57,049 nt of DNA from a virus (lineage: Duplodnaviria > Caudoviricetes): IMG/VR virus record IMGVR_UViG_3300025048_000003, positions 1 through 57,049 of that record. The stretch is one strand, 5' to 3'. Positions 1,209-46,558 of this stretch are shown here, one piece after another. The translations under genes were made by a program, and so were the position numbers. Positions within the stretch are counted from its first letter, which is position 1, and each line of letters opens with the position of its first letter. The notes beneath the pieces are model-generated. The model did no database searches. It saw nothing but the letters and a program-made list of their open reading frames with translations, and was not told where the DNA came from.

Positions 1209-1484
1209 TCAGGCTTCTTCATGAGACAATAAAATTGATTTGATTTTAGGACTCATCCTGTCGAGCATGGACTCAGCCACGCTAGTTTCAGCGTTATCCA
1301 AGTCTTCGAGGTATCCGAGTTGGTCAACCTCTCCATCATCGCCAACCTCAGGTTCAAAGTAAGCCGCTTCGTAAACAGCCTCATCAAAGGCATCACGCAG
1401 CTCGTCATTTCCTACAGGTCTGCCTGCTTCCTTGTATGAGCATAGCATATAGAACTTCTTTTCTTCAGGCTTCTGCATTGTCAT
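1209..1484 (-). CDS. hypothetical acidic protein
   Basis: 91 aa ORF in a tightly packed minus-strand operon. Confidence 0.6.
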   Translation of the reverse strand: MTMQKPEEKKFYMLCSYKEAGRPVGNDELRDAFDEAVYEAAYFEPEVGDDGEVDQLGYLEDLDNAETSVAESMLDRMSPKIKSILLSHEEA

Positions 1485-1896
1485 TATCTTTTTCTATGAA
1501 AACACTTTTTCTTTCATCTACATCGTAGTAGGCATCTTCGTTGCGCTCTACACACAAAGCATAGGCAGAACGAGAGGTAGCAACTTTCTCCGACACATCG
1601 AAGACGATGCAGTCATTGTCAATCCAAGTGCCTACGGCATATGAGACCCCACTAAGTCTGGATTCCTTGATTAGCTTGCGCACTTCGACTGCATACTTGT
1701 GCCAGATGGTGTGGAACGTGTTGGCATCGCAGATATCCAAAGGGATTTTGGTTTCTCCTGACAGACCGCCTACCATGAAGCCCTTATAAGGGACTTCAAA
1801 GTCGTATCCGTCTGATGTGAGTAGGGATGAGCCACCATCCATGAGGGTTCTGCCATAGGCAAGGCGAACAGCGTGTGTTGAGAACATTGTATTCAT
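1465..1896 (-). CDS. hypothetical protein
   Basis: ORF track 1465..1959. Start moved to ATG 1896, after the AT-rich leader and outside the tRNA-like element. Confidence 0.65.
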   Translation of the reverse strand: MNTMFSTHAVRLAYGRTLMDGGSSLLTSDGYDFEVPYKGFMVGGLSGETKIPLDICDANTFHTIWHKYAVEVRKLIKESRLSGVSYAVGTWIDNDCIVFDVSEKVATSRSAYALCVERNEDAYYDVDERKSVFIEKDNDNAEA

Positions 1897-1919
1897 ATTG
1901 AATAGATTAAAAAAATTAG

Positions 1920-2000
1920 AGCGGCTCAGGGACTCGAACCCTGCGACACTGACCTCCATCCCTGTTCCCCTCGCGATGGGTACTTAGGTAGGTAGCCGCT
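1920..2000 (-). ncRNA. tRNA-like RNA (acceptor stem and T-arm, no canonical D or anticodon arm)
   Basis: Perfect 7-bp acceptor stem AGCGGCT/AGCCGCT abutting a canonical T-arm CAGGG-TTCGAGT-CCCTG. The middle 50 nt fold as ACCT/AGGT plus CCATC/GATGG. Confidence 0.7.
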
Positions 2001-2012
2001 GATAGTGATAAG

Positions 2013-2375
2013 TTACTCGACTACATCGAGCCATTTAGAGTAAGGGAAGTTGTTTCCCCCAAGCAGGTAGATGCAGTACGAACCATTGCGGCTTTCGTAA
2101 ACTGGCTGTCCTTCGAAACTGAATTCAGTTTCTGTGCCTACCCACACCGCATACTCGTCCCCTGTTCGAGGGGAGATAGCTTTGATGTACTTACTACCAG
2201 AGGTAGTCTTGAACACTTTGAAGGGTTCTTCCTGAACCACAAGGTTCTCGTCTGCGTCGATCCCGCTTGACGTGTCGAAGCTTACACCATTGCCACCGAT
2301 GGTTTTTGCTTGGAAGGTTTGACCAAAGGTTGCAGACGCCATTGAGATGGCAAGGATGAAAAAGAAGTTTTTCAT
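2013..2375 (-). CDS. putative exported protein with Sec signal peptide
   Basis: N-terminus MKNFFFILAISMASATFG-Q is a Bacteroidota-style signal peptide followed by Gln. Confidence 0.75.
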   Translation of the reverse strand: MKNFFFILAISMASATFGQTFQAKTIGGNGVSFDTSSGIDADENLVVQEEPFKVFKTTSGSKYIKAISPRTGDEYAVWVGTETEFSFEGQPVYESRNGSYCIYLLGGNNFPYSKWLDVVE

Positions 2376-2395
2376 AATAAAGAAATAAATAAATT

Positions 2396-2448
2396 GAAAC
2401 TGACACTACTATGTAGTGTTTCGCCTACTTAAGGCTCATCAGAGTTCC
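2396..2448 (-). ncRNA. type I hammerhead ribozyme
   Basis: Minus strand: GGAACU-CUGAUGA-GCCU(UAAGU)AGGC-GAA-ACACUAC(AUA)GUAGUGU-C-AGUUUC. All core nucleotides, three stems and a GUC cleavage triplet are present. Confidence 0.92.
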
Positions 2449-2582
2449 TAACCTGCGGACTCATCGTCATCATCCGCTTGAGTGATTGTTTGCTTTTCCC
2501 CTTCAGGGGAGGAATCGTCCTCAAATTGAGCCGAACATAGGGATGCTATCGCAAGGGCACCCATCAGTAGTAACGCTCTCAT
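2448..2582 (-). CDS. 44 aa signal-peptide microprotein with acidic tail (MRALLLMGALAIASLCSA-QFEDDSS...DDDDESAG)
   Basis: Read by hand. ATGA-coupled to the upstream ORF; its stop abuts the hammerhead. Confidence 0.6.
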   Translation of the reverse strand: MRALLLMGALAIASLCSAQFEDDSSPEGEKQTITQADDDDESAG

Positions 2583-2746
2583 TTGGAGGAGGAGTTTACG
2601 AGGTCTTCAAGGCGCATCTGCTCATCGCAGGAGAGTGCATCGAAGCTTGCAGTGCAAGTGAATGCAGAGCCAAGGAGTTGAACATCGTTGAAGAGAGCCG
2701 AAGCCATTTGCGCTTTTTTGCGCTGTGTATCTGTGCTGTTATGCAT
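2579..2746 (-). CDS. small hypothetical protein (MHNSTDTQRK...)
   Basis: 3' part of ORF 2579..3055. ATG at 2746 lies downstream of the promoter at 2784-2815. Confidence 0.55.
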   Translation of the reverse strand: MHNSTDTQRKKAQMASALFNDVQLLGSAFTCTASFDALSCDEQMRLEDLVNSSSK

Positions 2747-2783
2747 AGGATTGAGATTTTGAAGTTGGCTGAATTGCCGATTG

Positions 2784-2815
2784 CAAAGATATAACAAACT
2801 TTTCGTTATTCCAAA
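2784..2815 (-). promoter_or_regulatory. Bacteroidota sigma-A-type promoter
   Basis: Minus strand TTTG-N20-TATCTTTG. Confidence 0.8.
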
Positions 2816-2840
2816 TTTAATTTTATACCCTTTAGGGTAG

Positions 2841-3083
2841 TTAGTCGATGAAGAGAGTATCGTAATGAGGCATATCCGCAGTCCAGCGGACAGCATGATG
2901 CGCCTCCTCCACGGGATCGAACACGTAGTCGCTCGAAGGAACTTCCTTGAGGAGACACCATTCACTCCCATCTTTGAGGAGTTGCCCAGCCGCCCAACTC
3001 TGGGCGTCTGACAAGCACGGAAAGCACATTTTAGTGCGGAATTCTGATTCCCCAAGGGGGAAGATAAAAGAGTAAATTGACAT
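2841..3083 (-). CDS. hypothetical protein
   Basis: 80 aa ORF with an AT-rich leader. Confidence 0.6.
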   Translation of the reverse strand: MSIYSFIFPLGESEFRTKMCFPCLSDAQSWAAGQLLKDGSEWCLLKEVPSSDYVFDPVEEAHHAVRWTADMPHYDTLFID

Positions 3084-3133
3084 AAATCTATGATTTAAAG
3101 GGTTTAATAACTAATGAAGTGATAACTACGTTA

Positions 3134-3910
3134 TCAGAATGGAGCAGTGTCAGCAATCAAAGCTTCAGCTTCAAGGCGGGCAGCCTCTATCTGAGCGGAG
3201 CGGAGTCGAGCCATGCACTCTTCGACAGTCTCACCCTCTAAGAGGGTCATTTTCATGAACTCCTTCTTACGAACCTTTGGTTCGACTACCTCGACTTCCT
3301 TACGAGGCTCGAAGGGCATAGCTTGACTACCGTCAAGAGCAACAGCTTTTGTCTTTTTGGCTTTGCCAATTCCGATGCCGTCCTTAGCTTGAGTTAACTC
3401 AAGACCAGCTTCTGACGTCCTCTTAGGACGACGGACAGCCTTTGACTTACTCTTCTTCGAAGAGCGTCTCTCTGCTGAAAGCAGAGCAAACAACTCCTTG
3501 TTTAGAACGGAACGTTCTGCTCTCTTCATCTTCTTACCAGAAGATAGAAGGGCTTCGATTTCAGCCTTCCGCCCCGTCTTCTTCGAAGACTTAGAAGCCT
3601 TCGGCTTTGGAGACTTGGCTTTTAAGCCAAGAGCATCGGCAATCTCCTTATGACTTACAGTCATAGACTCCGACTTCGAAGCCTTTGGCTTCTTAGTAGC
3701 CTTCGGCTTGGATTTGGACTTTGACTTAGAAGCCTTTGGCTTCTTAGCCTCTTCCTTCGGAACTTCGATGGACTGAAGGAACTGAACAAGTTCAGTAACT
3801 TGGAGTCGGCAGTTTGCCAACTTGCTCTCCGTTGGAGAGTAAACAAAGCTGTTTACAGCTTTCTTGAGGTCTTTCAGCATAGCTGATTTGTTTTCTAATG
3901 TCTTCGACAT
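3134..3910 (-). CDS. Lys/Ser/Ala-rich, histone-H1-like basic protein
   Basis: Repeated KPKASKS / KPKATKK motifs. First gene of the leftward operon. Confidence 0.7.
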   Translation of the reverse strand: MSKTLENKSAMLKDLKKAVNSFVYSPTESKLANCRLQVTELVQFLQSIEVPKEEAKKPKASKSKSKSKPKATKKPKASKSESMTVSHKEIADALGLKAKSPKPKASKSSKKTGRKAEIEALLSSGKKMKRAERSVLNKELFALLSAERRSSKKSKSKAVRRPKRTSEAGLELTQAKDGIGIGKAKKTKAVALDGSQAMPFEPRKEVEVVEPKVRKKEFMKMTLLEGETVEECMARLRSAQIEAARLEAEALIADTAPF

Positions 3911-4535: not shown

Positions 4536-4608
4536 AACCACCTCTCTATACTGGTTAAAAGGCTGTTACATAGAGGCTTAGGGGGTTTCATTAAAGCGTA
4601 TTGCTGAC

Positions 4609-9246: not shown

Positions 9247-9323
9247 GCCCTCGTAGCTCAGCTGGATAGAGCAACAGCCTTCTAAGCTGTGGGTCCTAGG
9301 TTCGAGTCCTAGCGGGGGTACCA
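9247..9323 (+). tRNA. tRNA-Arg (anticodon UCU) with encoded CCA
   Basis: Acceptor GCCCTCG/CGGGGGT, D-arm GCTC/GAGC, anticodon arm ACAGC-CTTCTAA-GCTGT, T-loop TTCGAGT, 3' ACCA. Confidence 0.97.
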
Positions 9324-36907: not shown

Positions 36908-39900
36908 ATGAGTCAAGAGTTTGAAAGCAGGGTAAACGAATTGGTTGTAGCACGGAATCTACCTTACAACGAAGCTGCTGAAATCGTAACCAGGGAGTTA
37001 GCTGAAGAAGGGGTTGAAGAAACCCAAAAAAAAAAGGATACAAATTCCGAGCCTTCGGGTGGGAAGTTCAGCTCTGTAGAACAGCCTAGCCTTCCCTTGA
37101 CTGCGTGGCAGGTCAATCAAATTTCCGAAAACCCTGAGTTTGAAGAGGATATCATAAACACCTCAAGGACCGCAGCTGATCAGTCCGAGGTGGACTCGTT
37201 AAACGCTGAGTATCAAGCGCGTGTAGATAAATACAACTCAGAGTTTAATACTGAGGCAACCAAGCTTATAGACGTACTGAGCGAAACTCAAGATGAGGGG
37301 TATGATGATATTTACAGTAGGTTTCAGGAAGAGACTGGAGTGTCTCTTGACGAAGATCAGGTCAAAGAGATAACAGCTTTAGCTACAGAAAGAAAAGACA
37401 GCAAGATTGCCCTTGATAGCGCCTACAAGAAGGCTCAGGAAGACTCAAGTTCAACGGGTCGGTTTGATCCACTTCAAGGGTTTTATCGAGAGCTGGGATA
37501 CGATGAGGAAGAGATTGAAGACATAGAGGTAGAGTGGAACGGGGCAAGAACTAGAAACGAAGCTATAAGCTCAGCCTTTGAGTTTTCCCCTAACGTTGAA
37601 TCTTTTACTGAGGATATCAGCGCTTTAAACCTAGACCCAGAAAGAGAACAAGCCTTTGTAGCCTCTTACACAAAAGCTTTTAATCAAGCAGGAGAAGCTA
37701 TATATGAAAGCTCTATTAACTCTCCTGGTAAGCTGTCTAGGAGAGCTAGGGCTTTAGAGAAGCAGGCAAGAAAGATAGAGAGGGATTTGGGTAAGGATAA
37801 TCTAGCTCTTTACAAACAGGGCGAGACATTAGGCGGGGAGGCGACAAAGAAAGGTCAAGAGTATGAGCGACTGATGTTTGAAGCTTCTCAGCTTAGAAAC
37901 AATTTAGAGCAGTCAAGATCTGAAAACAGAAGGGTAAGAGATTTTGCTAAGGCTCATCCAGTTGCGGTTAGATCCGCCTTCTCTTTAATCGCTTCTGCGG
38001 AAAGACAGTTTCTTGAGGGTGCGTCAGAAGAAGTGTTAAGCGGTTTCTATAATGGTAATCTGACTTTCGAAGAGGCCATAGCAACTCAGTTCAACAGAGA
38101 CTACTATGAGTCTCAGGATTCAACTGTGCTTTACCCTAGTGGAGTTTATTTTGAGGGAGAGGATCGCATGGCTTTCGTTCCTGAGGTAACCCCTCTCTCT
38201 GGAGTTACTGACGCTCCTGTGTTCGGAGACCCATACATGTCTGTTGACCCTTTAACTGGTAGAGAGGTTGCTAGCGGTAAAAGAAACTTGACTAACGAGG
38301 AAATAGAAGCGGTAAATAAAAAGAAAGAAGAGTATCTAAAAGAAGAGTTTCAAAAGCTGTCGGAGGGTATGACAGACGAAGAGAAAGCTGAGTTCGAGGA
38401 GATTATTCGTGATAGAAGTGGAATCGCTATGTCTCTTAGAGGGGACGAAAACTTCGGCGGTACTGGGTTTGAATTTACTGGTCATTTGGATTTTATAGGC
38501 GGCCTAGCAGACCTTCCAGGAATTATAGCTTCAGCTCCAGTTCACCTCGGAGCTCATATTGATTATCAGGTTGCTATATCTATGGCAAAAACTGAAGAAG
38601 AAAGAAACGAAATAGAAGAAAACAATAGGTCTATACATGACAGAATTGAGTCTGATTTTGATGCAGGCGGAAAGGAATGGGCGGAGAATTTATCTGCTTT
38701 TGATGTGAGCGGAAAAGGTGCGATGGAAAGCCTTTTCAATGGAGATATATACGGTGGACTTATTAAGGCTACAAATTCAATTGGAGAAATGGCTCCAGAC
38801 ACTGTAGCTGCTATGGGGTTAAGTATGGCTACTGGGGGTGCTGGAGTAGGACTTTTATTCTATACCAACAGCATGGTAAGAACATTCAACTCTGTAAGGG
38901 ATGAGGAGTGGTACAAGAACTCTTCTGGCATGGAGAGAGCTCTTTTTCTAAATGGGATGTCTATTCTTGAGGCCGCCACGGAGAAGGTTGCAACTGCTGC
39001 CCAATTAAGACTATTGACCGCTAAGACTACTAGGGGGTTGGGAGAAACCACCAGGTCTCTTGCGAAAAGAAAAATAACTAACTTTTTTGGAGACGCAGGC
39101 ATAGACACAGGCATGGAGCTAGTAAACACAATAGGTCAGGCTTCTATAGAGTACAAAGCGGGGGGGAGAACAGGCTTTGAGGGCTTTGCTTACGAGTTAG
39201 GGGATGTAGCCCTTTCTAGCTTTGGATTGAGTGGTAGTACCTCATTAGTTGGAGCAGCTAAAAATAAGATCAGCGCATCTCTTTCTTCTAGCGCGGACAT
39301 AAACAACATGGGTGCTACTAGGTTTTTCCGAACAGAAATGGAAAGCATCATCAGCTCTACTGAAGCGAACAGCAAAGAAAGAGAGGTTGCTTTAAATGCA
39401 CTTACTGAAGACATGGGTGTTATAGGCGCTATTCAACTGGACTCGTTTGAGTTTCATCAGTTTATAGGTGATCAGAATGCGGCTGACGGTATTGAGCTTC
39501 TTGACAATTCGCTTGAGTTAGTATCGATAACTAAGCAAATCGAAGCCAGCACATCCAACAAAGAAAAAGAAGCCCTGAGGTTACAGGCGGAAAAGATTGT
39601 AGCTGACAGAACAAAGATTGAAGGTAAGTATATTAATTTGTTTGCCGCTCAAGAAGGTATTATGGAGGGCGCTCAAGTATCCAACAGACTAGAGACATTA
39701 AACGAAAGAGCCTCTATGTTCGAGGCTTACGCAAAAAAACTAGAGAGTCAAAACAACCCTATTCAGGCTGACTCAATGCGTAAAAGAGCCGAGAGGGTAA
39801 GAAACTCTGCTGAGTCCCTTGAGGTTCAAATGGAGCTAAATGAAAAGGTATCTAGCGGGGATGTGTTATCCAGCGAGGGTAGAAACGCCAGTAACATTAC

Positions 39901-42900
39901 CGACAAGATTGTTGAAATGAATGTGGCTCAGGTTGTCGTTGACGCTGAGATAGCTAGCATGCTTGAGAAGAGAGGCTACAAAAAGGTTGAGTACAGTGGA
40001 AGCGGAACAGATCAGTTCTTGATGGTTGATTCTGTTTACCCTGTTGCTTTAGTAAACCCTCAATCTACTTCTTTTGAAGAGGCTCAATCAGAAATAGCAC
40101 TAAACAGAATAGTTGACTCAGGATCCATCAACGAAGAGTTCAGACCTCAGTTGATTTCTGAGCTTGCCAGAATGACTCAAAGAGGAGCTAACGAAACAGA
40201 CTTGTTTAAAAAGGCTTCAGAGTTGCTTAGCGAAGATGAAAAGACCAAGGTTACGGAAATATCAGAAAGAAGATTAGAAGATGTTGAAGACCTAACTAAA
40301 AACCCAGAAGCCGTACTGACCGAAAGTGCTAGTCAATCTCTTGACGTTTTATCTAAGGCCTTCTCTGGAACTCAAGCGAAAGCAATCTCAGACCTAGATC
40401 TGGCAAGAAAAGAGATTGAGCGTATACAGGGGGAAAAGGGCTTGACGCAAGATCAAAAAAATGAGCAAATTGAAAAAGAAAAAAAAGAATACTTAAATGG
40501 ATCAAGCGGGAAAAACGCTCTTTATGTAGAGGGAGAAATACTCCTTACAGAAAGAGCCACATCAAAAGACGTCGTTGAGGAGTATGCTCACGCATTTATT
40601 AAAAATAAAGTACAAGGTGTAGACAACGTTGCAAAGCAATTAAGGTCTGACTTGAATGAAATAATGGAATCGGATCAGGTTCTTGTTGATGCTGTCAATG
40701 AGAAGATGAGGTACTACAGGGAGGAGTTTGGGGCTAGCGACAGAATGCTGGCTGAGGAAAAGTACGTAGAGATTATAGCCGCTTATGTAGCTAATGAGAA
40801 AAGCCTAAAGGCTTCTACTATTGACAGAATGACTCAGTTTTTCGCTAAGCTCTTCCCTTCGTTTACTGAGAGTGGAGGTAGCTCTAGGGCAGTTCTAGAT
40901 AAGCTGTCTAAAAGCCTGAGAGACGGAAACAGTCAGGATATATCCAGTCAATTTGAAGAGTTGTTTAAGCTTGATCCTAGCGAGCAATCTAAAGTAGACG
41001 AAGCCCAGCAAGTTCCTGTTTCTGATCAAACAGCTTACAGTGCTAATAGAAGGCCTACTTTTCTAGACAACAAGAAGGTTACATACTACAAGTCATACGC
41101 TTCCAACTACGACTCTACCTCTCGGACTTACGGGGCTCCGCAGTCATACACGTTTAACGACTATTTTCACTTTGCCAATTGGTATAGAAAGATGACTGGT
41201 AATGGTGCTTACACTAGGATCGGTCAAATGACATACGTGGATGATTCGGGTAACGTAAAAACATTAAACCCACCAAAGCAGCTGCTTGACAGAAACACTG
41301 GGGCTCCAGTAGTCATACAGCCAGCCATGAAGAGTATGTATCAGACCTCTCTCGACAGAAAGAACGCCCAAGCCAATGAAAAGAACGAAAGAAGGCTTTC
41401 AGCTATTAAGGCAGTGCAGCTAGCAAAGGAACAGCTTTGGGAGGTAATGAGGCGAACTGATCCTGGAATAGGAGGCGGTAACGCAAACTCAATAATTGAT
41501 TCCCTTATGTCTGATTTCACACCAGAAGGCGTGAATAGCGAGACAAAGACAAATAGATTCGGTGACCCAATAAAAGAAAATGTAAAAGGATCTCCTGAAT
41601 ATCATGAGGCTCTTCTCGATAGGGTAAACGATTACGTACAAGAGAACTACGCTGGTGAGTCTATTCTGTATTCAGCTGCTTTTAGAAGGTCTCTTTCAGA
41701 AGCTTCTGACATGAAGCCTGCTCAAAAAAGAAAGCTTCTAGAAGACGGACTAAGAAGAACTAAAGACTTACTAGATCCAGAAACTTTAGCACAGATTAAT
41801 CTTTATATGGATCAAGCTGGTGAGGGTAAAATAGGTAGCGGAGTTCCAGCTCACTTAATGCAACAGATGTATTTTGCTATGTTGATTCAGGAAACTCAAA
41901 TGGAGTTAATTCTGAACGGCAACGATCTGACAAAAAACAAAGAGGATATGTCTCTGATGAGCGAGGTTGTCGCTAAAGAGTTGATGTTTGTAGATGATTT
42001 TCTAAATAAAAACCCAAGAAACTTTTATAAGAATTTCTACAAGCAGGTAAACTCCACTAAGAATAAAGACGGATCATACAGTGATCCCTTAGCTATACAG
42101 ACTGTAGGGAAGTCTCAAGACTCTGACGGTAACTTTACCGTAGATAACCCTCAGAAGCTAGAGCTGGCCAGAAAGCACAAAGACTTGTTTATTGCTATAG
42201 TCGCTGTAACGTCAAACGGAAACAGGGCTGTTCCTAATCTGTCAGAAAGTCTAAGAATTTATTCTGCTGTTCTTGAAGATCTGTTGCAAACACCTGGCAA
42301 AAACCCATCTAAAGTAGACTTCGCTAGAACAAAGCTGTTGATCGAATCTATAACTAGCCAGGGTCTTAAAGCTTCTCAATTTAACGGCCAAAGAAGTGCT
42401 GTTCCTATAGCTGTTGGGTTAAAGAACCTCCTAAACATTGACGGAATATCAAATGGACTTCCTCATTACAGGTTTGAATCTCCTACAACCTTTAAGAGAA
42501 ACGCATTAAAAAAGACGGGAGACAATCGGATCAGTATTCAGGATTCTTTAGGGAACTGGTCTAAGGTAGGCGCTTTTATGAGCAATCTATATCAAGACCA
42601 ATCTGTATTGACTCAAGACAGGCACTTGGTTAACTATCTAGACTCTAGGTATAGACCCTCTGAGGTTGTTAGTTTTCAAGTAGGCGACGTTCTTTCTGTG
42701 TTAAGGGAATTTGAGTATGGAAGAATAGATGCGGTTCAAAAAGAGTGGATGATAAGAACAGCTGATGGATCCACCGTATATGATTTAAAGAAGGTTGCTA
42801 AATGGGTTAAGGACAACATGGGCTCAAAGTCTACCAGGTCTGACGGAACGGTAGTATGCACGGGGGACAACTTAAAAAAAGAATTAAGATATTTATACGA

Positions 42901-45900
42901 CAATCGCATGACTCAAAAGGGGTCAGCTGGAAATCTCTTTGATGGTAACATTGAGGTGGTTGATTCTATTGTTGAACAACTTAGAAGGAAACCAGGGTAT
43001 AAATCTGTAACGAGAAGCGAGGTTATGCAGATGATCTTTGCAGCTAATCATGTACTTCCTCGGGCTGTGGGTGTTGCAAACAGAATCTATGATGATTTCT
43101 CTCAAGAGACATTTGAAAAAGCAATAGAAAAGCTTGAGTCATCTGCTGTTCAGCAAGGCACTCCAGCTGAAATGCTTAGCCGATTCACGAAAATACCTGA
43201 GATAGAAAACGACTTTAAGGGAAAGCCTGACTCTGAAAAGCTTCAAGCATATATAGATAGAGCAGACCTAAGTGAAGGCATGGGTCAGTTCATGAAAGGA
43301 GAAAACACTGAGGCTGTAATGTTCTCGGCAAAGAAAGTTCTCGATCTATCAGCGCACCCACAAAGCAGATCTTACAATCTGCCTGGAGTCTTTAAGGGTA
43401 GAAGCGTGAAGTCTATGCAGAACGTGAAGTTTGGTACTGGAAAGATTGACATCAACAAACTACTAGAAGGGAGAGCTTCAGAGGTTAACATAAAAGGGAA
43501 GGTATCTGAAGACAAACCATCAGATCAGTTTGATGAATTTGTTGAAGGGGTAGTATTTATGAGGCATCCTCTTCACGGAGACTCCTTTGTTGATTCTTAC
43601 GGTAATATCATCAAGAGTGCTGAGCAGGTGTATATGTCAGGTGATGTCATCATCGCTTCTGGGAAAGTTAGATATGCTGGAAACTCTATTGAGAGAGGCA
43701 AGAAGTCAGAGAACATAGTGATAGAAAACCCAGAGCATTTCCGAGCGTTTAATAACTTCATGTCTATCATGAAGCAGAGAAACCAGTCTCTAGCCAACGA
43801 GTCTACTGAAATGTTCGAAATGGCTTACAAGTCATTGACAGCCAAGGATCGAGCAAGGTTTGCCAACCTAACCATAGACGAGCACGGTAACGTAATAAAA
43901 GGGAGAAGACTTAGGGGTACATCTAAACGCCTTGCAAACTCTTCTGAGTTCGGAAGATTCAAAAATGAAATTGTAAGTAATCCAGAAAACTATATTGACA
44001 GACAGAGCATTGCAAACGAAAAGAAAAACTTAGAAGATCTTAGCGCTCAAGAGCTCGTTAGTTTGATGAGGGGCGACGCTTTGGATAATTTAGCGACAAG
44101 AAACGACGATGTTGGTGTCCTAGCAGGAGTCGAACTAATAAACAGGATGCAAGAAACAGGCAATGACATAGGCATTGCTGGAGTTCTGGATAGGTTGTCT
44201 GCGGTTGGAACAACAGCTGGTAGAATTCTCAGACACATGGCTGAACTGAAGACAAGCAGTCCTCAGGGAATGGCAAGTGTGATAATTAAAAAAGCAGAAG
44301 CGCAGGGTAAGATTCTTTCTGAAGAGCAAAAGAACAAAATCCTTGAAGCCACCAAAACATACATGGCAGCTTACAAGAAAGCTCAAGACTTGCTGGAAAG
44401 AGGAATAGCTGGAGAGGACGTAGAAGCTGAGTTTAAAAAAGCGAAGAAAGACTTAAACGAAACTCAGTCTAAGCTTGATACTCTGGCTAATATGTATACG
44501 GAAAAAAGCTGGTCCGAGATAGGCACTCAACTCGTTCAGGGTAACTTGCTTACTATGATGTCTCAGTCTAGGAACGTGGTTTACAACCTAGCAAACGTAA
44601 TACCGAAGACTGTAATTGATATTATGTCGATGCCTACTTCCAAGGCTTTTGAGCTCATGGGCTTACATAAAGAAAAGAGAAAGCTGTCTCTTGCTGGGTA
44701 CTTGTACGCTTTAAGAAAGTTTGGGTCTGGATCCGTGGAGGCTATGGAGCAGGTGATTACGGGCAGGGAAGAAGACATGTCTGAGTGGAGGATGAGTAGA
44801 GGGTTCATGCCTATTAGATCATTGATGGCTGCTATGTCAAGCGACCTTCCAGAGGGCGTTACTCTCAGGAATGAAGTCAATCAAAGGGCTAAGCTTTTAG
44901 TTCAGGGTACTTTTGGAATTCCTGCCGAAGCCATGTTCAGGCTCTTAAGCTTGGGTGATGTTCCTTTCAGAAGGTTTGCCGAGGGACTGGAGCTTTACAG
45001 TCTGGCAAAAGCAAAAGGTCTTGAAGGTGATGCGCTTGCTCAGTTCTTAAAGTTTCCAGATAAAGCTAGCGCAGAGCAAGGGGCAACCGAGGGTAGAAAG
45101 CTAACCTTCCAGGAACCTATGGGTCTTGCGAGAGGGAGTATGTGGATCATTGATAACATCTCAAAAGGAATGGGTGAAGCATTTAAGAACGTTAAAGGCT
45201 TTGATGCTGAAGGGTTCTTTAAGTATCTCATTAGGCTTAACGTTCCTTATGTTTCTACGATAGCAAACTTTACCGAAGAGACTCTTACTTATGCTTCTCC
45301 AGTAGTTGGAATTGGAAAGATGGGTATTCAAATGGGTAACAAAGATTACACAGAGGCATCTAAAACGCTGAGTAAGGTCATGGTTGGACAGGCGATAAGC
45401 ACGACAGCTTTGCATCTCATCTCTCAGGGTCTTCTAAGCGGAAGTGTAGACTGGGAGGATGATGAAAAAACAAACCTCATGTACGATACATTCCCGCCAA
45501 ACAGCATAAACGTTGACGGGTTAAGAAGAATGCTAGAGGGTGGTGATCCTGCTCCGCAGGCTGGTGATGAGTTTAGATCCTATCAGACGCTTGGGGTTTT
45601 CGGAACTATAATGGGTGCTTACGCTCACTCTACTTCTCCAGAAGCTGCAAAAGAAATGGCTGAACAACCCTTTAGCAGCAACAACGTACTAAAGAAAGTG
45701 TTCGGATTCGATAATGTATCAGTGATGGCGTATATGATGGATCAAAGCTTCCTTCAGGGACTGAACGGAATTACAAGTGTAATCTCAAGCACTAAGGATC
45801 CTGAGGATTTTGAAAGGGCTTTCTTTAGATACGCAGAAACAATATCTAAAGCTTTCTCTTCTATGTTCCTGCCTAACGTGCTGAGCGGAATTGATCAGTC

Positions 45901-46558
45901 AAGCAGGGAGTTTATGCCAGACAAACGAGATGTAGATCTAGCAGACAGAATAAAAAACCACGTAAGGGAAAGGACTTTCGACACTGGCGGACTTCCAGTA
46001 AAAGTGAATTGGAAAGGTGAGAGAATTGATCAGGCTCCTGTTGGTGGAAATCAGTTTTCGTACTATATGTTCGACGCAACAAAAAAACGAGAAGCCTCAC
46101 AGGATGAAACTTCTATAGAGATATTAAACCTATACCTAAGGACTGGAGTATTAACGAAGGCTGTTGGAACGCCTTATTATGCCTCTTCTGTGTATAGAAA
46201 AATACGTAAACCTTCGGTTCGTAGAGGCAAGGCTAAAAAAGCTTATCAAGCCTTAGGGGTTAATTACAGCTTTTTAGAAAGCCCAGAAGAAGACTTTAAC
46301 ATTAAGCTTACCGCTGAGGAAGTAAATAAAGCTCTTGAAATGAGCAATGTACCGAGGTACAATGAGATTAAGAATTTTATGCAAACAGAAGACTATCAAG
46401 CTATGACAGACGTCGAGAAGATAGAGTCTCTTGATGATATCAACAATAGATACAAGTCTCTTCTATCGTATAACCCAGACGGTTCGTTTATGGAGCACAG
46501 TAAATATATATTGGACTTAATGGAGTCAAGATATCTAGAGCAGTATGGACAAAATTAA
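36908..46558 (+). CDS. giant (3216 aa) virion cargo / polyvalent protein
   Basis: Size and position; zincin-like EEYAH...EE motif; TSNG...K.G.F..NL...LT.DRH segment; hydrophobic G/A-rich stretch. Confidence 0.75.
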   Translation: MSQEFESRVNELVVARNLPYNEAAEIVTRELAEEGVEETQKKKDTNSEPSGGKFSSVEQPSLPLTAWQVNQISENPEFEEDIINTSRTAADQSEVDSLNAEYQARVDKYNSEFNTEATKLIDVLSETQDEGYDDIYSRFQEETGVSLDEDQVKEITALATERKDSKIALDSAYKKAQEDSSSTGRFDPLQGFYRELGYDEEEIEDIEVEWNGARTRNEAISSAFEFSPNVESFTEDISALNLDPEREQAFVASYTKAFNQAGEAIYESSINSPGKLSRRARALEKQARKIERDLGKDNLALYKQGETLGGEATKKGQEYERLMFEASQLRNNLEQSRSENRRVRDFAKAHPVAVRSAFSLIASAERQFLEGASEEVLSGFYNGNLTFEEAIATQFNRDYYESQDSTVLYPSGVYFEGEDRMAFVPEVTPLSGVTDAPVFGDPYMSVDPLTGREVASGKRNLTNEEIEAVNKKKEEYLKEEFQKLSEGMTDEEKAEFEEIIRDRSGIAMSLRGDENFGGTGFEFTGHLDFIGGLADLPGIIASAPVHLGAHIDYQVAISMAKTEEERNEIEENNRSIHDRIESDFDAGGKEWAENLSAFDVSGKGAMESLFNGDIYGGLIKATNSIGEMAPDTVAAMGLSMATGGAGVGLLFYTNSMVRTFNSVRDEEWYKNSSGMERALFLNGMSILEAATEKVATAAQLRLLTAKTTRGLGETTRSLAKRKITNFFGDAGIDTGMELVNTIGQASIEYKAGGRTGFEGFAYELGDVALSSFGLSGSTSLVGAAKNKISASLSSSADINNMGATRFFRTEMESIISSTEANSKEREVALNALTEDMGVIGAIQLDSFEFHQFIGDQNAADGIELLDNSLELVSITKQIEASTSNKEKEALRLQAEKIVADRTKIEGKYINLFAAQEGIMEGAQVSNRLETLNERASMFEAYAKKLESQNNPIQADSMRKRAERVRNSAESLEVQMELNEKVSSGDVLSSEGRNASNITDKIVEMNVAQVVVDAEIASMLEKRGYKKVEYSGSGTDQFLMVDSVYPVALVNPQSTSFEEAQSEIALNRIVDSGSINEEFRPQLISELARMTQRGANETDLFKKASELLSEDEKTKVTEISERRLEDVEDLTKNPEAVLTESASQSLDVLSKAFSGTQAKAISDLDLARKEIERIQGEKGLTQDQKNEQIEKEKKEYLNGSSGKNALYVEGEILLTERATSKDVVEEYAHAFIKNKVQGVDNVAKQLRSDLNEIMESDQVLVDAVNEKMRYYREEFGASDRMLAEEKYVEIIAAYVANEKSLKASTIDRMTQFFAKLFPSFTESGGSSRAVLDKLSKSLRDGNSQDISSQFEELFKLDPSEQSKVDEAQQVPVSDQTAYSANRRPTFLDNKKVTYYKSYASNYDSTSRTYGAPQSYTFNDYFHFANWYRKMTGNGAYTRIGQMTYVDDSGNVKTLNPPKQLLDRNTGAPVVIQPAMKSMYQTSLDRKNAQANEKNERRLSAIKAVQLAKEQLWEVMRRTDPGIGGGNANSIIDSLMSDFTPEGVNSETKTNRFGDPIKENVKGSPEYHEALLDRVNDYVQENYAGESILYSAAFRRSLSEASDMKPAQKRKLLEDGLRRTKDLLDPETLAQINLYMDQAGEGKIGSGVPAHLMQQMYFAMLIQETQMELILNGNDLTKNKEDMSLMSEVVAKELMFVDDFLNKNPRNFYKNFYKQVNSTKNKDGSYSDPLAIQTVGKSQDSDGNFTVDNPQKLELARKHKDLFIAIVAVTSNGNRAVPNLSESLRIYSAVLEDLLQTPGKNPSKVDFARTKLLIESITSQGLKASQFNGQRSAVPIAVGLKNLLNIDGISNGLPHYRFESPTTFKRNALKKTGDNRISIQDSLGNWSKVGAFMSNLYQDQSVLTQDRHLVNYLDSRYRPSEVVSFQVGDVLSVLREFEYGRIDAVQKEWMIRTADGSTVYDLKKVAKWVKDNMGSKSTRSDGTVVCTGDNLKKELRYLYDNRMTQKGSAGNLFDGNIEVVDSIVEQLRRKPGYKSVTRSEVMQMIFAANHVLPRAVGVANRIYDDFSQETFEKAIEKLESSAVQQGTPAEMLSRFTKIPEIENDFKGKPDSEKLQAYIDRADLSEGMGQFMKGENTEAVMFSAKKVLDLSAHPQSRSYNLPGVFKGRSVKSMQNVKFGTGKIDINKLLEGRASEVNIKGKVSEDKPSDQFDEFVEGVVFMRHPLHGDSFVDSYGNIIKSAEQVYMSGDVIIASGKVRYAGNSIERGKKSENIVIENPEHFRAFNNFMSIMKQRNQSLANESTEMFEMAYKSLTAKDRARFANLTIDEHGNVIKGRRLRGTSKRLANSSEFGRFKNEIVSNPENYIDRQSIANEKKNLEDLSAQELVSLMRGDALDNLATRNDDVGVLAGVELINRMQETGNDIGIAGVLDRLSAVGTTAGRILRHMAELKTSSPQGMASVIIKKAEAQGKILSEEQKNKILEATKTYMAAYKKAQDLLERGIAGEDVEAEFKKAKKDLNETQSKLDTLANMYTEKSWSEIGTQLVQGNLLTMMSQSRNVVYNLANVIPKTVIDIMSMPTSKAFELMGLHKEKRKLSLAGYLYALRKFGSGSVEAMEQVITGREEDMSEWRMSRGFMPIRSLMAAMSSDLPEGVTLRNEVNQRAKLLVQGTFGIPAEAMFRLLSLGDVPFRRFAEGLELYSLAKAKGLEGDALAQFLKFPDKASAEQGATEGRKLTFQEPMGLARGSMWIIDNISKGMGEAFKNVKGFDAEGFFKYLIRLNVPYVSTIANFTEETLTYASPVVGIGKMGIQMGNKDYTEASKTLSKVMVGQAISTTALHLISQGLLSGSVDWEDDEKTNLMYDTFPPNSINVDGLRRMLEGGDPAPQAGDEFRSYQTLGVFGTIMGAYAHSTSPEAAKEMAEQPFSSNNVLKKVFGFDNVSVMAYMMDQSFLQGLNGITSVISSTKDPEDFERAFFRYAETISKAFSSMFLPNVLSGIDQSSREFMPDKRDVDLADRIKNHVRERTFDTGGLPVKVNWKGERIDQAPVGGNQFSYYMFDATKKREASQDETSIEILNLYLRTGVLTKAVGTPYYASSVYRKIRKPSVRRGKAKKAYQALGVNYSFLESPEEDFNIKLTAEEVNKALEMSNVPRYNEIKNFMQTEDYQAMTDVEKIESLDDINNRYKSLLSYNPDGSFMEHSKYILDLMESRYLEQYGQN

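Follow-up and report, generated by a model that had tools for sequence, protein, structure and literature searches.

Do two structured RNAs that lie on either side of one small phage gene form a single device, or are they separate signals that share a transcript? The question is raised by the IMG/VR virus record IMGVR_UViG_3300025048_000003, a DNA of 57,049 b with a completeness estimate of 94%, which over its full length is referred to here as the window. On its minus strand, among a series of small genes whose functions are unknown, the window carries a hammerhead ribozyme, a gene for a protein of 120 amino acids (aa), and an element of 81 nucleotides (nt) that resembles a transfer RNA (tRNA). 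The original prediction combined the three into one excision cassette, in which a self-cleaving RNA and a tRNA mimic would release the enclosed gene as a messenger RNA (mRNA) of its own. Comparison with related phages leads to another answer: the two RNAs appear, from their distribution, to be independent signals that happen to flank the 120-aa gene in the window. On balance, we favor the reading that two RNA modules, each independent of the other, lie in the early small-gene operon and are probably processing signals of a polycistronic transcript.

Much of what had been described at this locus holds. The positions assigned to a 44-aa open reading frame (ORF), the hammerhead, the 120-aa gene, the tRNA-like element, and the next ATG are all correct on the minus strand, and a complete hammerhead and a tRNA-like element are indeed present, both of them conserved with covariation in relatives.

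A Hammerhead Ribozyme on a Stop Codon

The hammerhead spans 53 nt (2396–2448; positions are on the minus strand of the window unless another strand or locus is named) and is of type I, with stem I open. In the order of transcription it reads GGAACU (stem I), the core CUGAUGA, stem II as GCCU-UAAGU-AGGC, GAAA, stem III as CACUAC-AUA-GUAGUG, a U, the C at which the cut is predicted, and AGUUUC (stem I). The minimum free energy (MFE) fold of 2450–2390 is exactly this three-stem hammerhead (−15.3 kcal/mol, z −2.39, with 3 of 200 shuffles as good), and the C17 position in the fold places the predicted self-cleavage site between C2402 and A2401, with 26 nt from there to the ATG at 2375. A descriptor script that demands the core plus three stems matched once in the window and in none of 200 window shuffles; when it was run on 586,669 b comprising the window and the loci of relatives, taken from virus and metagenome collections and numbered with the prefix L, it gave 18 matches, every one at homologous places.

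Seven hammerhead variants were aligned on the structure (alignment A3). CUGAUGA, GAAA, and UC are invariant among them, all three stems are kept, 99.2% of the cells are paired, and both partners have changed in 10 of the 17 pairs. In covariation the alignment scores 0.622, compared with 0.209 for shuffles (reached by 0 of 500), with the limit that pairing and covariation are here partly by construction, most variants having come from the pairing-demanding descriptor. When the 3′ partner was slid by 1–3 columns as a control, just 26–40% of the cells paired. In addition, the covariance model R2 added copies that the descriptor had missed, namely one in L109, which has an insert of ∼80 nt in stem III, and one in the cultured Flavobacterium phage vB_FspP_elemoF_6-3D (NC_055853.1, 16045–16102, minus strand; locus L120:1246–1303; 33.6 bits, E 8e-8), for which no convincing stem II could be drawn. 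An annotated opposite-strand coding sequence of 35 aa, gp66, overlies this last copy and is probably a spurious call.

What sets these hammerheads apart is where they sit. In all seven contexts examined, the ribozyme either has the stop codon of the upstream gene within its 5′ part or follows it by no more than 3 nt. In the window, L106, L109, and the elemo phage, stem I starts with the G of a UAG stop; in L010 and L096, the stop is the first of the two UGA triplets in CUGAUGA; and in L066 and L099, a UAA stands 3 nt ahead of stem I. In the window, the stop belongs to the 44-aa ORF, the last base of whose TAG is the first G of stem I; in NC_055853.1 it belongs to an unannotated 20-aa ORF, and the next gene is gp67. 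The distance from the predicted cut to the next ATG is equally narrow, from 24 to 29 nt (26 in the window, in L066/L099, and in L109, 28 in L096 and the elemo phage, 29 in L106, and 24 in L010). Judged by its core, stems, and covariation, the element is a real and complete type I hammerhead ribozyme, for which self-cleavage is predicted; it is ordinary in kind and unusually regular in placement.

A further stretch with a hammerhead-like look was noticed in two relatives (L002:4800–4870 and L004:4580–4650), where ∼75 conserved nt of the form AAUGAG...CGAAAC directly follow the stop of a homologue of the 143-aa gene. It is, however, without a CUGANGA core, its fold is no better than those of shuffles (z 0.10), and it has no match in Rfam.

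A tRNA-like Element with a Palindromic Loop

The tRNA-like element (1920–2000) starts 12 nt past the stop of the 120-aa gene, and the next ATG, at 1896, lies 23 nt beyond it. Its 81 nt comprise a 7-bp acceptor stem (AGCGGCU/AGCCGCU), a long irregular arm, an 8-nt linker, and a T arm of 5 bp (CAGGG-UUCGAGU-CCCUG) with the loop UUCGAGU fitting the pattern GGTTCRANYCC; there is no D arm. The same window encodes a normal tRNA-Arg with the anticodon UCU at 9247–9323, on the plus strand and hence opposite to the hammerhead and the tRNA-like element; an encoded CCA is present in this tRNA and absent from the element.

Scanning the virus and metagenome collections with sequence patterns gave 34 copies including that of the window, many of which are the same contig twice, and which reduce to 10 distinct sequences, each exactly 81 nt long. 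In none of them is the acceptor stem extended past 7 bp by flanking bases. In the alignment of these variants (A1), all 25 pairs are paired in 100% of the cells, and the variants score 0.213 for covariation, compared with 0.100 for shuffles (reached by 0 of 500), with pair 9–48 occurring as CG or AU and pair 15–38 as CG, UA, or UG. RNAalifold placed the middle of the arm in a slightly different register (13–14 with 44–45, and 15 with 42) that also covaries, and both registers remain candidates. The T arm and the acceptor stem, the parts by which an RNA of the kind of the mitochondrial t-elements (discussed at the end of this text) is recognized here, are either invariant or compensated in the 10 variants. 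Moreover, the element is 80–86% identical between phages whose proteins from the downstream gene, resembling the family phrog_17808, are 28–33% identical.

Known collections offer little that resembles this RNA. It matches no Rfam family; its sole match at E ≤ 10 is a 17-nt stretch of the T arm to mascRNA (RF01684, 16.4 bits, E 2.2). A DNA search of window positions 1400–3200 against cultured phages gave no match, and with the 81-nt element as query the sole match among them was the 20-nt T arm of a tRNA-Lys. Its conservation and covariation nevertheless mark the tRNA-like element as a real conserved RNA.

The most distinctive part of the element is the 7-nt apical loop of its long arm, which consists of an A and a hexamer. 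The hexamer is UCGCGA in the window type (1971–1976) and GUGCAC, CUGCAG, or CAGCUG in other variants, i.e., a perfect palindrome in four of four. Pair 25–30 varies as CG, UA, and GC and pair 26–29 as UA, CG, and AU, so that switching from one hexamer to another takes two or four simultaneous changes. A second copy of the hexamer that might act as a partner in cis was looked for in the flanks, up to 1.5 kb on each side, and none is conserved there. Because palindromy is kept in four variants and no conserved second copy lies nearby, the simplest explanation is that the loop would pair with that of another RNA copy, as a kissing loop.

Probable Processing of a Polycistronic Transcript

The reading that we favor would act as follows. 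The hammerhead, set where the upstream ORF has its stop codon, would probably cut itself after C2402. Hammerhead cleavage leaves a 5′-OH on the downstream product and a 2′,3′-cyclic phosphate on the upstream end. As it is stem I that is open, the ribozyme body and the stop codon would stay on the upstream mRNA after the predicted cut, with stems II and III and the cyclic phosphate forming a structured 3′ end. The mRNA of the 120-aa gene would then start with a 5′-OH, the six stem I bases, and a short A/U-rich leader, 26 nt in all. As for the tRNA-like element, it keeps the parts that enzymes of tRNA ends read, i.e., a 7-bp acceptor stem that would stack on the 5-bp T stem, and the T loop; host RNase P would probably cut at its 5′ end (2001/2000), and RNase Z or an equivalent enzyme near 1919. 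The two cuts at the element would free an mRNA for the phrog_17808-like protein with a leader of ∼22 nt, together with a small RNA that may pair with a second copy through its palindromic loop. If both RNAs are cut, the products would be an mRNA of ∼401 nt and an RNA of 81 nt, as had been predicted.

The main reason to favor a processing role for the element is that structurally different RNAs of the relatives share exactly the minihelix that RNase P and RNase Z recognize. Near the phrog_17808-like gene, relatives carry RNAs of 45, 48, 72, 81, and 161 nt that have only an acceptor stem and a T arm in common. The smallest, of 45 nt (L109:1331–1375 and L110:∼1093–1138), shows compensatory changes in both stems. 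Others are of 48 nt (L096:3268–3315), 72 nt (L098:2087–2158, also in L099), 81 nt with a sequence different from that of the element in the window (L100:3191–3271; class L100–L102), and ∼99 nt (L008:4834–4932). The largest, of ∼161 nt, is multibranched, with a 7-bp acceptor stem made by its two ends, a canonical T arm adjoining that stem, and a fold z of −2.34; it belongs to a class found in L004–L008 and L094, and its five full copies in relatives include L004:4787–4947, L008:4672–4832, and L094:2897–3057. Since the model R1, built on the 81-nt element, gives just weak matches at the level of the minihelix to the other classes (13–28 bits), common descent with the element is not claimed for them.

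Taken together, these minihelix RNAs with their unrelated inserts resemble a modular set. The window itself begins within a member of the largest class: its first bases (1–23) interrupt a ∼161-nt RNA copy at the 5′ end, downstream of a 143-aa gene at 584–153.

A bolder form of the processing reading, which we put forward only tentatively, is that flavobacterial podoviruses rely on a toolkit to punctuate their early operons, one that may consist of a type I hammerhead on a stop codon and of minihelix elements of 45–161 nt that borrow the RNase P and RNase Z of the host, the 81-nt class being in addition a small RNA that forms a homodimer through a kissing loop.

Several observations weigh against processing as a full account of the two RNAs, and some against their reality. 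Both score below the Rfam gathering thresholds, at which neither is reported in the window or in the loci of 12 relatives. For the hammerhead of the window, at E ≤ 10, Rfam gives a misaligned match to Hammerhead_3 of 19.9 bits (cut-off 48.5) and one to RAGATH-1 of 17 bits (cut-off 56.3), and the hammerhead of L010 reaches 22.2 bits with Hammerhead_1 (cut-off 34). The hammerhead is dispensable, since two of the five related genomes that were searched whole have none, the other three having one each. The fold of the tRNA-like element is no better than that of shuffled sequence (z −0.51), and lone combinations of an acceptor stem and a T arm arise by chance, with 64 matches in 200 shuffles, or ∼0.3 per window; because chance minihelix matches are common and the fold energy is unremarkable, the reality of the element rests on its conservation and covariation in relatives. 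In this respect, AAGTACC, GGGGAAC, and GTTCGA (or, in one scan, the 3′ 24 nt) were prescribed by the search patterns, so that these blocks are invariant by construction and divergent members were missed. Moreover, an element of the type found in L016 stands directly after a promoter-like site and not between cistrons, and separation of cistrons therefore cannot be its sole role. Finally, the high conservation of the element and its palindromic loop suggest a function beyond that of a cutting signal.

Alternative Explanations

These last points lead to the rival that survives best, according to which the tRNA-like element would be chiefly a functional RNA, either a small RNA that dimerizes or the leader of the phrog_17808-like gene, e.g., as a tRNA mimic bound by a protein. 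The gene contexts of the element speak to this idea. There are seven of them: the element follows the 120-aa gene in the window, a 49-aa peptide gene in L066, genes of the MYNHFLEF type and of the MSRYENGY type, genes of 26 and of 60 aa, and, in L016, the promoter-like site, where it would be first in the transcript. On the other side of the element, the phrog_17808-like ORF begins 21–23 nt past its end in 37 of 40 fetched copies, and in the remaining three, of the L016 type, a 59-aa gene intervenes before it. The element thus tracks the downstream gene and not the cargo. This fixed spacing, the contrast between the well-kept element and its diverged neighboring protein, the double and quadruple compensatory changes among the four loop hexamers, and the want of a nearby cis partner favor a functional RNA. 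Against it, the structurally different classes have in common only the minihelix read by RNase P and RNase Z, the downstream protein bears no sign of RNA binding (it falls in no Pfam family, and its best match among PDB folds has an E of 0.022 and a TM-score of 0.17), and six relatives have the same gene without the element (L004, L005, L006, L008, L010, and L099). We hold this explanation to be possible but doubtful, and it is compatible with processing, rather than strictly exclusive of it.

Less likely still, and in our estimate improbable, is the cassette itself, i.e., a dedicated unit of hammerhead, cargo, and tRNA mimic that is inherited together and is able to carry different cargo. By copies, it has some appeal: 16 of the 34 tRNA-like elements have a hammerhead, 15 of them at exactly 402 nt and on at least three different contigs, and one at 184 nt, in L066, where both RNAs are kept around a swapped cargo, the 49-aa peptide gene. 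However, the relatives in question are nearly identical, many of the 15 copies represent one contig twice, and the other 18 copies lack a hammerhead, although three of these 18 have <100 nt of upstream sequence and are uninformative. By contexts, a hammerhead lies within 900 nt upstream of the element in two of seven (the window type and L066), leaving five without, and an element lies downstream of the hammerhead in two of eight, leaving six without, namely L010, L096, L099, L106, L109, and the cultured elemo Flavobacterium phage. L099 amounts to L066 minus the element: its hammerhead and 49-aa cargo are the same, and 20 nt stand in place of the tRNA-like RNA. The slot between the 55-aa gene, which opens the operon in the window, and the phrog_17808-like gene has variable content across relatives, and in L004, L005, L006, and L008 it holds other tiny genes and neither RNA. 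Together with the attachment of the element to the downstream gene, this means that the cassette is not a unit, because its elements occur independently of one another in relatives, which is the finding that the original prediction had itself named as decisive against it. What stands of that interpretation is two real conserved RNAs on the coding strand of an apparent single operon; what falls is their union.

The order of genes in L099 deserves a separate mention. There, a 117-aa homologue of the 120-aa protein comes before the hammerhead and a gene for a small acidic peptide after it, which is the reverse of the order in the window, and the 49-aa ORF that follows the hammerhead in both L066 and L099 resembles the 44-aa ORF that precedes it in the window. 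A circular permutation relating 44-aa/hammerhead/120-aa to 117-aa/hammerhead/49-aa was considered and rejected, since neither order can be turned into the other by cyclic permutation.

A third explanation, that the element is an odd-shaped decoding tRNA or the remnant of a host tRNA gene left at an integration site, is very improbable. It would account for the acceptor stem and the canonical T arm, and the 7-nt loop, if read as an anticodon loop, gives NGC (alanine) anticodons in all four variants. The missing D arm counts against it, as does position 33, which is U, G, or C, and the covariation of 33/38 and 34/37 as pairs is unlike an anticodon loop. ARAGORN calls no tRNA or transfer-messenger RNA at the element in the window and in seven loci and finds only the tRNA-Arg at 9247–9323 in the window, and the same gene is the sole match there of the Rfam tRNA model (RF00005). 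Both halves of the acceptor are present, unlike in a remnant at a phage attachment site (attP), and the 24-nt 3′ end of the element has no exact match in the bacterial and archaeal species genomes searched (genome_contigs).

Finally, that both RNAs are chance motifs without function, an idea to which their scores below Rfam gathering and the chance occurrence of minihelices lend something, is scarcely credible in view of their covariation, their conservation across phages with diverged proteins, and the lack of any descriptor match to the hammerhead in 200 shuffles.

The Operon, Its Genes, and the Host

Under the processing reading, both RNAs would be carried by one transcript, and the genes around them fit such an arrangement. 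A promoter scan by regular expression of the minus strand below position 4600, with the Bacteroidota consensus TTTG-N20-TAnnTTTG, gave two fitting sites, at 2815–2784 and at ∼613–582. The first, TTTG followed by a 20-nt spacer and TATCTTTG (2784–2815), is a promoter-like site of the Bacteroidota type whose motif is kept in relatives, and it may be an active promoter. Because these are the only two promoter-like sites in the region scanned, the stretch from the 55-aa gene down to ∼620 is plausibly a single transcript. The two sites are near-identical (TAAATTTGG..N..TATCTTTG) and bracket the operon.

The first gene of the operon encodes a protein of 55 aa (MHNSTDTQRKKAQ...; 2579–2746), is conserved in relatives, and has a stop that overlaps the start of the next gene (ATGA); its product has no match in Pfam or among the PHROG families. 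It is followed by the 44-aa ORF (2448–2582, TAG stop at 2450–2448), which has a hydrophobic N-terminus and an acidic tail and, as judged by eye, carries a signal peptide. The 120-aa gene (2013–2375, ATG at 2375) also encodes a hydrophobic N-terminus, and its product is likely exported; in PHROG it has only a weak match, to phrog_16207 (E 2.7e-4). Beyond the tRNA-like element lies the phrog_17808-like gene of 143 aa (1465–1896, ATG at 1896; E 5.7e-10). Its protein was modeled with AlphaFold2 from an alignment of 38 sequences, at a predicted local distance difference test (pLDDT) value of 87.3 and a predicted template modeling score (pTM) of 0.81, and a comparison of this model with PDB folds gave no significant match. 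A tblastn search of cultured phages with the same protein gave no match. More broadly, 10 proteins of the window that were compared with Pfam fell into no family, and PHROG assigned them two families of unknown function only.

Elsewhere in the window, matches to PHROG families exist for the large terminase, the portal, and structural proteins. The terminase shows 41–47% identity in tblastn to its counterparts in isolates of Flavobacterium phage vB_FspP_elemo and in an uncultured podovirus, and it has further matches to Cellulophaga phages, 110 records in total, all of them below 60% identity. Because the terminase matches Flavobacterium phages, an uncultured podovirus, and Cellulophaga phages, the host is most likely a member of the Flavobacteriia, and we read the window as the genome of a podovirus of a flavobacterial host. 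Its structural, or late, half contains a single ORF of 3,216 aa (36908–46558, plus strand).

Comparison with Known Systems

Hammerheads that flank phage genes are already known, and that of the window joins this kind. In the excerpted text of Perreault et al. 2011 (PMC3088659), prophage hammerheads flank single genes or small groups of them, their arrays cleave in vitro, and the processing of long transcripts is proposed as their role; in addition, a hammerhead lies 13 nt ahead of a start codon in a haloarchaeal virus, where a 5′ end has been mapped near the cleavage site. The arrangement had not been recognized from described phage systems, and for its hammerhead half this report is an earlier example. 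The resemblance extends to the position between phage genes, to the inconstant identity of the cargo, and to the presumed role of cutting transcripts into gene-length mRNAs. Unlike the tandem sets in that text, the hammerheads of the present lineage are single, with none or one type I copy per genome in five relatives, and their regular seat on the upstream stop codon, 24–29 nt from the next ATG, has no parallel in the excerpts at hand. For the role of the many phage hammerheads, this lineage offers a clean and testable case, with one copy per genome, placement on a stop codon, and a start codon ∼26 nt downstream, and with a cultured Flavobacterium phage of known host, Flavobacterium sp. BAL314, among its members.

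For the tRNA-like element, the closest analogues are the t-elements of plant mitochondria. As presented in the part of Forner et al. 2007 (PMC1920247) drawn on here, these are noncanonical tRNA-like structures embedded in mRNA precursors and found with the pattern GGTTCRANYCC; their ends coincide with 5′ or 3′ ends of mRNAs, and cuts by RNase P and RNase Z are proposed. The element in the window matches the same pattern and is likewise a tRNA-like structure that would lie within a transcript. It differs from what is described for t-elements in that it belongs to a DNA phage of bacteria and not to an organelle, has a fixed length of 81 nt, a palindromic loop, and a tight linkage to one gene family, and has ends that are predicted from its sequence.

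A looser analogy is provided by the theta ribozymes, which resemble the hepatitis delta virus (HDV) ribozyme and, according to the sections of Kienbeck et al. 2024 (PMC10879173) considered here, lie directly 3′ of real, often suppressor, phage tRNAs, whose trailers they trim. There, too, a small self-cleaving ribozyme accompanies a tRNA-shaped RNA in a phage, and the hosts include Bacteroidota. In the window, by contrast, the ribozyme is a hammerhead that stands 402 nt upstream, is unlinked to the tRNA-like RNA, and accompanies an RNA that is no tRNA.

Two further RNAs are worth comparing. In MALAT1, RNase P and RNase Z cut at a tRNA-like fold within a longer transcript; the long RNA thereby acquires its end, and a small one, mascRNA, is released. 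That system is eukaryotic, and the element in the window shares the T arm only and is not a member of that family. In human immunodeficiency virus type 1 (HIV-1), the dimerization initiation site (DIS) is a kissing-loop hairpin with a 6-nt self-complementary sequence in its apical loop, which varies among strains and yet stays palindromic. Unlike the DIS, the loop described here has 7 nt and is borne on a tRNA-like scaffold, and its palindrome predicts RNA dimerization from covariation alone.

In the literature searched, we found no description of such a tRNA-like element in phages, and, to our knowledge, tRNA mimics that act as mRNA processing signals are documented for organelles and eukaryotic nuclei. 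The more novel part of the locus is the element, together with its palindromic loop and its relatives, rather than the hammerhead, and without the excision cassette the finding is less singular than it was first rated. If host tRNA enzymes do cut the element, this would show that phages employ tRNA mimics to signal mRNA processing, and if the toolkit proposed above is real, it would be the bacterial-virus counterpart of the tRNA punctuation of mitochondria. Both RNAs are very probably processing signals on one transcript, and, by analogy with the precedents set by prophage hammerheads and by t-elements, the best reading of this locus would be the punctuation of an early polycistronic transcript.

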